Assembly (NCBI GenBank): GCA_045544995.1
Contig: JAZQAE010000112.1
Coordinates: forward strand, 1 to 63,426
Direction: 5' to 3'
DNA from: Eubacteriales bacterium
GTDB taxonomy: Bacteria > Bacillota > Clostridia > Oscillospirales > QAKW01
DNA length: 63,426 nucleotides
Shown here: one piece after another, positions 9,394-13,690 of the stretch
Position numbering within the stretch: position 1 is the stretch's first letter
How the letters are laid out: the number at the start of each line of letters is the position of its first letter
The notes under the pieces: generated by a model
Databases searched by the model: none
What the model was told of the DNA's origin: nothing
Seen by the model: only the letters and a program-made list of their open reading frames with translations
Translations under genes and position numbers: made by a program

Positions 9394-9762
9394 ATGAAAA
9401 AAAGCGGTTTTGTGGCATTGATATTAGGAACTGTAAGCGGGATGCTCTTCGCTCTCGGAATGTGTATGGCACTTCTGCCTGAATGGGATGCCTTTACAGA
9501 AGGTGTAGTTTTCGGAGCCATTGGTATCGTGCTCGGTGTTATCACGGCACTGATCTGGCGCAAAATGGAAGACAAAAAAATGCCGAAAATGAATGCAAAA
9601 AACGTATTCCGCACCATTTACGCCGTCATCGGTGCTTTGATACTTGGGGCAGGAATGTGTATGTGTTTGGTGTGGGAGCAGATCATCTGGGGCACCCTTG
9701 TGGGTCTCTTGGGCATCATCATGCTGATCGCACTCATTCCGATGATTAAAGGCATCAAATGA
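9394..9762 (+). CDS. small 4-TM membrane protein
   Basis: SD AAGGAG; two similar halves each containing GMCM. Confidence 0.8.
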   Translation: MKKSGFVALILGTVSGMLFALGMCMALLPEWDAFTEGVVFGAIGIVLGVITALIWRKMEDKKMPKMNAKNVFRTIYAVIGALILGAGMCMCLVWEQIIWGTLVGLLGIIMLIALIPMIKGIK

Positions 9763-10577
9763 AACTCATAAACTTTGCAAAAAATCCCTATACCCGGCTT
9801 TTCTTGAACTTTATCTATGCAGTAGCCAACTGTATTTTGGGATTTTGGGAATATTCCTGGTGGTTTATTACGGTAGGTGCGTATTATACCGTGCTTGCGA
9901 TCACAAGATTTTCTGTGTTGCAGGTCAAACGAAAAGCAAGTGGCGACTATGATACCGAGCTTTTTGCACGGCGCATTACAGGAATTTTATTGGTTGTGCT
10001 TTCTTTCTGCATAGTAGGTGTAAACATCCTGTCTACTGTTAAAGATAGAGGCACCGCCTTTCACGAAATTGTAATGATCGCCATTGCAACATACACCTTT
10101 ACCAAAATTACCATCGCCATTATCGGTATGGTAAAAGCAAAAAAATCTGCTTCGCCGGTTTTAAAGACACTCCGTAATATTTGACTCGCTGATGCGTGTG
10201 TTTCTATCTACACCATGCAAAGATCCATGCCGGTGTCTTTTCCAGGGATGGATCCGGCGGAAATCTTATTACTAAACATATTTACGGGAACAGCAGTATG
10301 GATCATCGTACTGCTTCTCGGAATCAATCTGATTGGAGGAAAATATACTATTATGGCTAAATCTAAAATTGTTGAAGCAAACGAGAAGATCGCAGAGGCT
10401 GTAACCGGAGGTTACAAGAAGATCGAAAAAGGCGTTGTGGATGGCTACAAAAAGATCGAGCACGGCGTCGTGGAAGGCTACGCCAAGATCGAAGATAAGT
10501 TCGTAGATGCTTATCTCACCAAAGACGGCGAAACCGTAGAGGAAGCAAAAGCAAGATTAAAGAAAGAGAATAAATAA
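9759..10577 (+). pseudogene. membrane protein interrupted by a single in-frame TGA at 10182-10184
   Basis: ORFs 9759-10184 and 10215-10577 share a frame; read-through gives KTLRNI*LADACVSIYTMQRSM with continued TM character. Confidence 0.7.
10353..10577 (+). CDS. 74-aa protein with 11-residue amphipathic repeats
   Basis: ATG 10353 preceded by GGAGGA; VTGGYKKIEKG/VVDGYKKIEHG/VVEGYAKIEDK. Confidence 0.65.
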   Translation: MAKSKIVEANEKIAEAVTGGYKKIEKGVVDGYKKIEHGVVEGYAKIEDKFVDAYLTKDGETVEEAKARLKKENK

Positions 10578-10581
10578 GAAA

Positions 10582-10617
10582 ACGGCGGCAGGGAAACGTT
10601 AAGTTCCCTGCCGCCGT
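10582..10617. terminator. bidirectional intrinsic terminator
   Basis: ACGGCGGCAGGGAA-N8-TTCCCTGCCGCCGT between convergent units. Confidence 0.85.
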
Positions 10618-10686: not shown

Positions 10687-11474
10687 AATAAACGCCTCGC
10701 TGCATCTGCCACCGGCAGCGCAAAATATAAAAGCCTTGCCCCTTCGGGCAAAGCTTTGAATAAGGTGCCCAGCTGGCGGTTTCCCGAAATAATCTGCGGG
10801 CTTACGCTTTCCTTGATTATTTCGACCGCTGCACAATACACGCCTCGCTGCATCTGCCACCGGCAGCGCAAAATATAAAAGCCTTGCCCCTTCGGGCAAG
10901 GCTTTGAATAAGGTACCCAGTTTGCGGTTCCCCGAAATAATCTGCGGGCTTACGCCTTTCCTTGATTATTTCGACCGCGGCGCAATAAACGCCTCGCTGC
11001 ATCTGCCACCGGCAGCGCAAAATATTAAAGCCTTGCCCCAAGGGACAAGGCTTTGAATAATGTACCCAGCTGGCGGTTTCCCGAAATAATCTGCGGGCTT
11101 ACGCTTTCCTTGATTATTTCGACCGCGGCGCAATAAACGCCTCGCTGCATCTGCCACCGGCAGCGCAAAATATAAAAGCCTTGTCCCTTGGGACAAGGCT
11201 TTGAATAAGGTACCCAGCTGGCGGTTTCCCGAAATAATCTGCGGGCTTACGCTTTCCTTGATTATTTCGACCGCTGCACAATAAACGCCTCGCTGCATCT
11301 GCCACCGGCAGCGCAAAATATTAAAGCCTTGTCCCTTGGGACAAGGCTTTGAATAAGGTACCCAGCTGGCGGTTTCCCGAAATAATCTGCGGGCTTACGC
11401 TTTCCTTGATTATTTCGACCGCAGCGCAATAAACGCCTCGCTGCATCTGCCACCGGCAGCGCTCGGCGTTTATT
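10687..11474. repeat. tandem array of a 148-bp multi-hairpin unit (5 full copies plus a partial sixth)
   Basis: Unit starts at 10687, 10835, 10984, 11132, 11280, 11428; near-identical copies; three internal inverted repeats per unit. Confidence 0.97.
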
Positions 11475-12471
11475 CCCACTCGATGGTGCCGGTGGGCTTC
11501 GGGGTCAAATCGTAGAGAACGCGGTTGATCCCTTCCACCTCGTCGGTAATACGAGTCACGATCTTATGCAGAACCGCATAGGGGATCTCCTCGATGGTGG
11601 CGGTCATGGCGTCGGTGGTATTGACGGCACGAATGATGGCAGGCCAACCTTCATAACGGCTATCGTCCTTCACACCCACGCTCTTAATATCGGGAATGAT
11701 CACGAAATACTGCCAAACCTTCCCTGCCAGGCCGTTCAAATCGAACTCTTCCCGGAGGATAGCATCGGCCTCACGCAAAGCGTTCAGGCGATCCCGGGTG
11801 ATGGCACCCAGGCAACGGACACCCAGGCCGGGGCCGGGGAACGGCTGACGATAAACCATAGCATGAGGAAGGCCCAGCGCCTCGCCCACCACACGAACTT
11901 CGTCCTTAAAGAGCAGTTTGATGGGTTCCACCAGATCAAACTTCAGATCCTCCGGCAGGCCGCCCACGTTATGGTGAGACTTCACGGCCTTCTTGCCTTC
12001 TGCCTGCTTAATGCTCTCCAAAATATCAGGATAGATAGTACCCTGAGCCAGGAAATCAATATCCTCGAGTTTTCTGGCCTCATCTGCGAATACATTAATA
12101 AATTCAGCGCCGATGATCTTTCTCTTCTTCTCGGGATCGGCCACGCCGGCCAAAAGATCCAGGAAACGATCGGTGGCATCTACGTAGATCAAGTTTGCAT
12201 CCAGTTCGCCCTTAAACAGCTTGATCACGTTTTCAGACTCATCTTTCCGCATCAAGCCATGGTTTACATGGACACAGACCAACTGTTTGCCGATGGCCTT
12301 GATCAACAGGGCGGCAACAACGGAAGAATCCACACCGCCGGAAAGTGCCAACAGCACTTTTTTATCGCCGACCTGCGCACGGACGGCCTCTACCTGCTCT
12401 GCAATAAATGCATCGGCAAGTTCTTTATTGGTAATACGAGCCATAGACTCAGGACGTACATTAGTATCCAT
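11470..12471 (-). CDS. guaA: GMP synthase ATP-pyrophosphatase and dimerisation domains only (no glutaminase domain)
   Basis: PP-loop ALSGGVDSS, KSHHNVGG, PFPGPGLGVR, C-terminal KPTGTIEWE; only 333 aa. Confidence 0.93.
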   Translation of the reverse strand: MDTNVRPESMARITNKELADAFIAEQVEAVRAQVGDKKVLLALSGGVDSSVVAALLIKAIGKQLVCVHVNHGLMRKDESENVIKLFKGELDANLIYVDATDRFLDLLAGVADPEKKRKIIGAEFINVFADEARKLEDIDFLAQGTIYPDILESIKQAEGKKAVKSHHNVGGLPEDLKFDLVEPIKLLFKDEVRVVGEALGLPHAMVYRQPFPGPGLGVRCLGAITRDRLNALREADAILREEFDLNGLAGKVWQYFVIIPDIKSVGVKDDSRYEGWPAIIRAVNTTDAMTATIEEIPYAVLHKIVTRITDEVEGINRVLYDLTPKPTGTIEWE

Positions 12472-12487
12472 TTTATTGTCCTCCTTA

Positions 12488-13690
12488 TCAGTTGGTGTAG
12501 TTATCGAAGTAGCCCTGAACCAGAACCACGGGAGTTCCCTTATCGCCGGAACCGCTGGTCAGGTCACAGAGAGAACCGATCAAGTCGGTTAGCTGACGGG
12601 GGGTGGTACCCTGAGCCGCCATATTACCCACCAAGCTGGAGCCATCCTTGGCCTTGATGGACTCGGAGATGGCCTTTTTCAGTTCCTCACCGGACAGATC
12701 CTTATAATCATTATCTGCCAGATATTTCAGTTTCAATTCGTTGGGCGTACCGATCAGACCGTCGGTAAAAGCAGGAGAAACAACGGGGTCTGCCAGTTCC
12801 CAAATTTTACCCTTGGGATCTTTAAAGGCGCCGTCGCCGTAAACCATAACTTCCACGTGCTTCCCGGTCTCCTTAAGGATACGAGCCTGGATATCCAGAA
12901 CCAGATCCTTACACTCACGGGGGAAGAGTTTTACCTTATCCTCGGTGGATTTATTGGAGCCCAGAAGGCCGTACTTTTCATTACAACCGCTGCCATTGAC
13001 GGGGGCGTTCAGGATCTCATCCAGACCGCAAACGACCTTGGCGCCGTTCTCCAGCAGGATCCGCTTGGTACGGGCACGGGTATGAATGTCACAGTTAATA
13101 ATATGATCGGCATAGTCGAGGATCGCCTTCGCCTGATTAGCGAAGATGATCTCCACCTCAGCACCGCAGGAACGAACCAGGTCGGTGTACAGCTCAACAT
13201 AGTCCACACCGGTAAACTCCAGTTTCTGCACGCCGAACACTTCACGATAACGCTCCAAAGAAAGAACGTCGGAATAGGGATTGATGCCTGCTTCGTCGAT
13301 CAGATCCAACGTAGCCAGAGAGTTTCCTACTTCGTCGGTAGGATAGCTGAGCATGATCACGAGTTTCTTACAGCCCTTTGCAATACCTCTCAGGCAGATC
13401 GAAAAACGGTTCCGGGAGAGGATGGGGAAAATGACACCTACGGTGCCGCCGCCCAACTTCGCCTTTACGTCAGCGGCAATATCCTCTACAGTTGCATAGT
13501 TGCCCTGTGCTCTTGCCACGATAGACTCGGTCAGCGCAATTACGTCCCGGTCTCTCAGTTCAAATCCGTCAGACTCACTGGCGGCCAATACGCTTTCTGT
13601 TACGATGGCGGCCAAGTCATCCCCTTCACGGATGATCGGGCAACGAATGCCCCGGGAAATTGTACCGACTCTGCGTTCTTTTGTTTCCAT
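12488..13690 (-). CDS. CofE/F420-0:gamma-glutamyl ligase-like (DUF129) protein
   Basis: PIIREGDDLA, TESIVARAQG, DLIGSLCDLTSGSGDKGTPVVLVQG resemble CofE N- and C-terminal motifs. Confidence 0.8.
   Translation of the reverse strand: METKERRVGTISRGIRCPIIREGDDLAAIVTESVLAASESDGFELRDRDVIALTESIVARAQGNYATVEDIAADVKAKLGGGTVGVIFPILSRNRFSICLRGIAKGCKKLVIMLSYPTDEVGNSLATLDLIDEAGINPYSDVLSLERYREVFGVQKLEFTGVDYVELYTDLVRSCGAEVEIIFANQAKAILDYADHIINCDIHTRARTKRILLENGAKVVCGLDEILNAPVNGSGCNEKYGLLGSNKSTEDKVKLFPRECKDLVLDIQARILKETGKHVEVMVYGDGAFKDPKGKIWELADPVVSPAFTDGLIGTPNELKLKYLADNDYKDLSGEELKKAISESIKAKDGSSLVGNMAAQGTTPRQLTDLIGSLCDLTSGSGDKGTPVVLVQGYFDNYTN

Follow-up and report, generated by a model that had tools for sequence, protein, structure and literature searches.

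The tandem array that follows guaA in this Eubacteriales genome is best read, with a probability of about 0.7, as a non-autonomous mobile element of REP/PATE-like type that inserted at the guaA stop codon and was duplicated in place together with a predicted terminator. The array is likely not a new RNA gene but a locally duplicated mobile element, and the element behind it belongs to a dispersed family in gut Clostridia with conserved, covarying stems.

The array behind guaA and its units

The window, that is, the whole stretch of 63,426 nt analysed here, is one complete contig of a 2.18-Mb assembly in 186 contigs, and the array lies well inside it. Tandem Repeats Finder delimited 5.2 copies with a period of 148 and 95% matches at 10687-11462 on the minus strand, one unit having 149 bp, in agreement with the tandem array of 148-bp units reported in a preliminary description of this DNA. 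The units differ pairwise by 3-11 nt and are 93-98% identical over their whole length; exact repeats within the array reach 100 nt at most. As that description also held, this is unlike CRISPR, since the units are near-identical throughout with no unique spacers between them. Sequence comparison placed unit 1, which adjoins the gene, at 11315-11462; model matches and unit alignment placed units 2 (11167-11314), 3 (11019-11166) and 5 (10722-10869), and a model match placed a partial sixth unit with the core of hairpin 1 only (10687-10721). Unit 4 (10870-11018), the one of 149 bp, has three diagnostic variants in common with the single copy of a relative, genome G007. The 5' outer arm of hairpin 1 is missing from all of units 2-5. 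The three stems described for each unit are present: three units folded on both strands gave z values of -2.9 to -4.0 in 6/6 folds, with at most 1 of 200 shuffles equally stable. Short ORFs across the array had no Pfam match.

The gene upstream encodes a GMP synthase of 333 aa (11470-12471, minus strand) with GMP_synt_C and PP-loop matches and no glutaminase domain match, and a search of the assembly with a guaA query returned this gene as the single match. It stands directly behind an F420-ligase-like gene, and the pair covers 11470-13690 on the minus strand. On the array's other side, two adjacent in-frame plus-strand ORFs of 141 and 120 aa (9759-10577), with one stop between them and no Pfam match, may represent a gene for a membrane protein, cut off by an early stop, and a short gene after it. 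Other repeats were also seen in this genome: a different 109-bp tandem repeat in three copies at the end of the contig (63096-63426), a 108-bp relative of which ends contig C144, and apparently non-coding tandem arrays with periods of 39, 49-50, 65, 137 and 248 on contigs C40, C56, C58, C66 and C83, some of which share an AT-rich palindrome.

Each array unit consists of two parts, about 100 nt from a dispersed two-hairpin element of about 113 nt and a terminator-like hairpin. On the guaA strand the order is hairpin 1 core, hairpin 2, spacer, and terminator-like hairpin with its T-tract; the terminator-like hairpin is the middle stem of the preliminary description, and the other two stems belong to the dispersed element. 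The only complete copy of the element in the array, at 11362-11474 on the minus strand (model match of 80 bits), has its ends set by the family rule of 13 nt before the core and 7 nt after hairpin 2. It overlaps the guaA stop codon and, by the same rule, starts after GG among the last guaA codons. The stop codon (11470-11472) is predicted to pair within the outer arm of hairpin 1, and we infer an adaptation of this arm to the target sequence at the guaA end.

In the terminator scan, the middle stem was terminator-like on the minus strand in 5/5 units and on the plus strand in 0/5, and the array region held 8 terminator-like sites against 2.2 in shuffles. The stem folded 1.3-5.2 kcal/mol better on the minus strand than on the plus strand. 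The first predicted hairpin of this kind, at 11323-11350 on the minus strand (-19.8 kcal/mol), lies about 120-150 nt past the guaA stop, and further copies follow on the same strand at 11175-11202, 11027-11054, 10878-10905 and 10730-10757. Like an intrinsic terminator, the middle stem forms, on the gene strand, a hairpin of 9-12 pairs with a T-rich tract after it, and by prediction a GC-rich hairpin with a U-tract appears on the transcribed strand in 5/5 units; unlike one, its T-tract is interrupted after 3-4 T, and it occurs in five tandem copies. The hairpin at 11323-11350 is the likely, computationally predicted 3' end of the guaA mRNA. The preliminary description erred in placing the first minus-strand terminator at 10582-10617, where a separate two-way terminator-like hairpin stands behind a convergent plus-strand gene. 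Its proposal that the guaA mRNA carries a 3' extension of 850 nt is unlikely, because the middle stem of each of the five units itself resembles a terminator when read on the guaA strand. The variants of this stem were as claimed, with a C-G pair in copy 2 and T-A in copies 4-5, while copies 1 and 3 have a single C.A mismatch apiece, both of which become G-U on the minus strand. These variants sit in the terminator hairpin, in which G-U pairs are to be expected on the strand that is transcribed, and two of two wobbles falling on one strand has a chance probability of 0.25 by simple arithmetic. Copy 3 could be a recombinant of neighbouring copies.

A dispersed family of two-hairpin elements

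Model R1, built from 44 aligned copies of the element, had 17 matches in the source genome. Six fell within the array, and of the 11 dispersed copies 7 lay within 700 nt of a tRNA gene, such DNA making up 2.6% of the genome. An 18-base core pattern was found in 23/30 genomes of the genus (one match for the reversed control), and a 23-base pattern in 35/301 genomes of the order (0 control matches), with at most 19 per genome. At least 121 stretches matched in the species collection; the 80 listed carried mainly Acutalibacteraceae, Oscillospiraceae, Faecousia, Ruminococcus and unclassified Clostridia titles, together with three Lachnospiraceae and two proteobacterial rows, taken for chance. Viral contigs gave 35 stretches, a count that includes at least three resembling chance matches in coding DNA, and two of the stretches held three tandem copies. 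A phylum-wide model search, in which only 27 candidates were scored per genome, was positive in 1/120 other genomes. The 861-kb replicon NZ_AP023416.1 of Vescimonas fastidiosa had 37 model matches, 29 on the plus strand and 8 on the minus strand.

The element was mostly 109-117 nt long with two hairpins. From 248 loci we obtained 220 distinct cores, of which 32 had a second core within 450 nt; at L080 and L126 element copies stood head to tail with no spacer. A longer, gene-carrying form was sought among 52 cores without a near end, and none was found. At three loci (L089, L171 and L114), element copies were split by palindromic inserts of about 100 nt in a nested layout.

The preliminary description had suggested searching the unit against its own and related genomes and scanning Rfam. 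The former yielded the 11 further copies and 35/301 positive genomes given above; the latter gave nothing at the gathering threshold of Rfam 15 in the window, only sub-threshold matches at chance level, and in 20 loci with dispersed copies only tRNAs reached the gathering score. Our literature search found no description of the family, which may sit among unnamed candidates in the alignment files of PMC8040213 or PMC5737381; four 14-base core words were present in one unrelated human-mRNA paper.

When 107 distinct sequences were placed on the model, in an alignment fitted to the model structure, 87.4% of cells were paired, compared with 65.2% in shuffled sequences and 30.5-58.2% in slid controls. 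Changes on both sides occurred in 25/30 pairs, so that covariation is far stronger than the three variant observations on which the preliminary description had relied. The 11-12 core pairs were almost pure Watson-Crick (525/528 and 994/1023 cells), as expected of a DNA hairpin. The claim of a strand-specific structure is weakly supported: the two wobbles in the array are G-U on the minus strand, but the strand-neutral test gave little G-U bias, with 22 G-U and 17 A-C among the 1x1 mismatches when 137 sequences were folded without G-U pairs. A structure-blind realignment of 93 non-seed sequences gave -12.8 for the sense and -12.05 for the antisense strand, and the seed alignment alone gave -18.05 and -12.97, respectively. 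Raw wobble counts of G-U against A-C (90:9 and 95:16) favoured the gene strand and were rejected as strand evidence, since the structures had been fitted on that strand and the neutral tests were weak. The fold of the element is well supported, and folding does not settle the strand or the choice between RNA and DNA.

Insertion sites and candidate mobilising enzymes

A tRNA gene lay within 600 nt of 92 of the 220 cores, with 8 tRNA types represented, and 92/92 were on the strand of the tRNA, a figure that overstates independence as many of these copies are orthologous. Among the 80 complete tRNA-linked copies, 47 were preceded by a tRNA fragment of at least 8 nt, mostly from the D-loop, which ended 13 nt before the core in 31/47 and 12-14 nt before it in 38/47. 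In 26 complete tRNA-linked copies tRNA sequence flanked the element left and right, and as a rule no more than 0-2 of its bases were lost or altered. Over the cores, G was found at -15 in 79% and at -14 in 87%. Twenty of the 37 V. fastidiosa loci (L383-L402) were examined; 16 right junctions ran into a GTAG-type REP, and the other 4 led into a different palindromic repeat, the second repeat. Empty forms of that REP and of the second repeat occurred 14 and 19 times in the same loci. Filled and empty sites together show that the element inserts right after GG without a clean target duplication; the chemistry of this step is presumed. The copies on NZ_AP023416.1 were seen to sit in the loops of the GTAG-type REPs and of the second repeat. 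The 128 cores away from tRNAs were weakly oriented relative to flanking long ORFs (36:24 upstream, 31:29 downstream), and 106 neighbouring proteins, from 123 picked, had no common family. A prophage locus ahead of an HUH replication gene was also observed with the element only in some close relatives (L326 and L329 versus L327, L328, L330 and L331).

Enzymes of the HUH/Y1 type mobilise REPs and IS200/IS605-type elements in the form of folded single-stranded DNA and leave no target duplication. Searches for a mobiliser were carried out in metagenome assemblies, which lose mobile genes, so a missing match does not imply absence. The preliminary description had suggested looking for a RAYT/HUH transposase near other copies; RAYT genes were not associated with the element, occurring in 9/35 positive and 61/266 negative genomes (p 0.68) and in 0/15 genomes of this genus; the element was present at 2/30 RAYT loci, both from one genus and with the query locus included. 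In five high-copy genomes, IS110 was found in 0/5, reverse transcriptase in 1/5 and stand-alone GIY-YIG in 1/5, and Y1 matches, some of them broken, in 4/5 of an overlapping high-copy set. The single Y1 gene of the source genome has an internal stop, and a strong model match was found at 1 of only 10-12 Y1 loci; it lay within a REP, at a distance of about 600 nt from the transposase match. RAYT, IS200 TnpA, IS110, reverse transcriptase and Ssn-type GIY-YIG were all rejected as partners, none being supported. The phage HUH replication gene (PF23343), next to which five viral copies lie, was rejected as well, as the element occurs at only 2/10 related loci, which points to an insertion site; two of the empty loci keep a few core-like bases and may be deletions. 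No clear rolling-circle bias was detected among 128 cases in total, with 10 partial heads downstream and 5 upstream and partial tails at 6 and 7.

Like REP/BIMEs of the GTAG and CGTC families, the element is extragenic, palindromic and dispersed, and some of its copies are tandem. According to the available text of Di Nocera et al. 2013 (PMC3733652), REP clusters are reiterated in tandem with flanking DNA and their termini supply stop codons to flanking genes; 'Clostridi' does not occur in that text. Dispersed extragenic copies and tandem reiteration agree with membership of the GTAG/CGTC REPs; the tetranucleotide, the length and the RAYT link do not, as 10687-11462 contains no GTAG or CGTC on either strand, the element has about 113 nt and two hairpins where a REP is a single palindrome of 20-40 bp, and no RAYT link was found. 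The element also inserts into REP loops and is not itself the REP. The third option raised in the preliminary description, a REP/BIME-like element amplified in tandem, was right in kind.

The PATEs and SMRs of Haloquadratum walsbyi, as presented in the accessible part of PMC3119063, are transposase-free and leave no target duplication; PATEs have near-terminal palindromes and no terminal inverted repeats, and SMRs have other palindromic elements as their targets, with no mobiliser known for them. The element resembles PATEs in its palindromes near both ends, its lack of terminal inverted repeats, a length too short to code, the absence of target duplication and insertion 3' of a fixed GG, with 0-2 target bases changed in most resolved junctions. 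Likeness to IS200/IS605 ends, as in PATEs, was sought at a small number of Y1 loci and not found; one of these loci had a strong match inside a REP. In contrast to both H. walsbyi families it is bacterial and tRNA-linked, and SMRs, not the element, have terminal inverted repeats. It differs from MITEs in that its ends are not complementary and there is no clean target-site duplication. The NTS/SRM repeats of Ssn nucleases, in the portion of Chenal et al. 2025 (PMC11893778) available, are likewise oriented hairpin repeats readable as single-stranded DNA; unlike them, the element is much longer, the array had 0 matches to the published degenerate SRM pattern on both strands, and stand-alone GIY-YIG was present in only 1/5 genomes.

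Origin of the array and its significance

Thirty guaA-homologue loci were recovered in the genus, 25 of them with readable DNA after the stop, and the element was present in three (the source genome, G007 and G018). In genome G005 it stands behind a copy of the last 12 bases of guaA (11470-11481 in the window, minus strand), without the gene and with the downstream genes of G018. This 12-base end is like an att-core duplication, and the arrangement fits later insertion of an island at a known type of site, guaA 3' ends being integration sites according to the available text of PMC4701971. A single unit is present in each of the genomes G005, G007 and G018, and behind it come 7-18 nt of a unit start, with the same junction as in the array, and units 2-5 begin at the same junction point as these single units. 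Amplification would have taken place between these short direct repeats. The variants of the G007 copy are spread across different units of the source array, which suggests an older array with turnover or a collapsed G007 assembly; the single copies in relatives could be collapsed arrays. A diverged copy of the element was detected behind guaA in another organism (L188), and a true pre-insertion allele of the guaA site was not found. Separately, a different hairpin-rich repeat follows the stop of the same gene at L024, L025 and L035, two of which have similar genes next; the guaA 3' site collects several repeat families.

The element inserts after GG in tRNA copies and in REP loops, always on the tRNA strand in the tRNA cases, and we propose that it also entered the last guaA codons in this way and that it would move as folded single-stranded DNA through an HUH/Y1-type enzyme acting in trans, like REPs and PATEs. 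A second, partial copy of hairpin 1 past the terminator would have created a pair of short direct repeats, and element and terminator would have been amplified to five units when these repeats recombined unequally or slipped. Most transcripts are predicted to stop at the first terminator about 150 nt past the stop, which would leave the extra units mostly unexpressed and neutral. Where hairpin 1 covers the stop codon, it may have an effect on translation or on the stability of the mRNA.

The complete same-strand tRNA bias (92/92) fits an RNA intermediate as well, in which case the family would spread by reverse transcription of a structured, possibly circular RNA and the array would be an RNA-templated concatemer of a processed guaA 3' end. 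The unit junction at the end of the terminator T-tract, near the expected transcript end, the head-to-tail copies without spacer at L080 and L126, and the better sense fold of the seed alignment (-18.05 versus -12.97) are in keeping with it. With reverse transcriptase in 1/5 high-copy genomes and none in the source genome, partial heads not clearly biased downstream (10 versus 5), near-equal folding of the 93 independent sequences on the two strands and 1x1 mismatches of 22 G-U and 17 A-C, we regard this as unlikely. The preliminary description proposed a selected multi-module extension; the element would then be a domesticated cis-acting RNA structure such as a 3' UTR stabiliser or a tRNA-processing signal. 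Strong covariation, the same-strand tRNA link and retention behind guaA in a clade of four genomes, with a diverged form at L188, can be cited in its favour. It is nonetheless decidedly unlikely, given that the element is not behind 22/25 homologous genes, splits tRNA copies and has 106 neighbour proteins without a shared family, that every unit carries a terminator-like hairpin, that units 2-5 are 5'-truncated, and that Rfam has no match. The terminator-like hairpins and truncated units, with the single units in relatives and the unrelated neighbour genes, likewise leave a processed-ncRNA array or protein scaffold, two further options of that description, unsupported.

A stack of integrative elements at the 3' end of guaA, whose attachment-site remnants were multiplied by repeated site-specific integration, is a very improbable source of the array. 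The record of integration at guaA 3' ends, the downstream DNA of guaA that differs among relatives and the 12-base end without its gene in G005 speak for it, but the 12-base core is missing from units 2-5, which largely refutes the idea, and the element is also present, unconnected with any integrase, in REP loops, in tRNA D-loops and between phage genes. An assembly artefact in the copy number is scarcely credible. The assembly is split into 186 contigs, and no public contig among those found spans the entire array, but the units differ by 3-11 nt, no exact repeat exceeds 100 nt, and unit junctions are bridged by contigs from other public runs, namely X2 (178 nt, 11040-11217, 3 differences), X3 (174 nt, 10840-11013, 4 differences) and X6 (133 nt, 11286-11418). 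A small share of the sequence words was present in 24/24 sequencing runs searched, and one RNA-library contig covered 11405-11507 with 7 differences, which says nothing about transcription.

On the preferred reading of a mobile element duplicated behind guaA, the array itself is probably a neutral and inconsequential local amplification, and the family behind it matters more. It extends across Oscillospiraceae, Acutalibacteraceae and Ruminococcus-type genomes and their prophages, where it splits tRNA copies and rides inside REPs. A bolder and, in our judgement, doubtful extension is that the element founds an undescribed transposase-free class of gut Clostridia that would home on GG in loops of folded single-stranded nucleic acid (tRNA D-loops, REP loops and a stop-codon region) without target duplication, by an enzyme outside RAYT, IS110, Ssn and reverse transcriptase, and that would become tandem through a circular or RNA intermediate capturing a neighbouring terminator. 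The strong covariation of the family would lead RNA-discovery pipelines to take it for a new ncRNA, which makes it a useful warning case. In E. coli, REPs that lie no more than 15 nt from a stop have been reported to affect translation (cited in the accessible part of PMC12306157), and the element copy over the guaA stop codon tests whether this effect extends to Clostridia. With 37 copies on one replicon of a cultured host, V. fastidiosa MM35, the mechanism by which the family spreads is testable.
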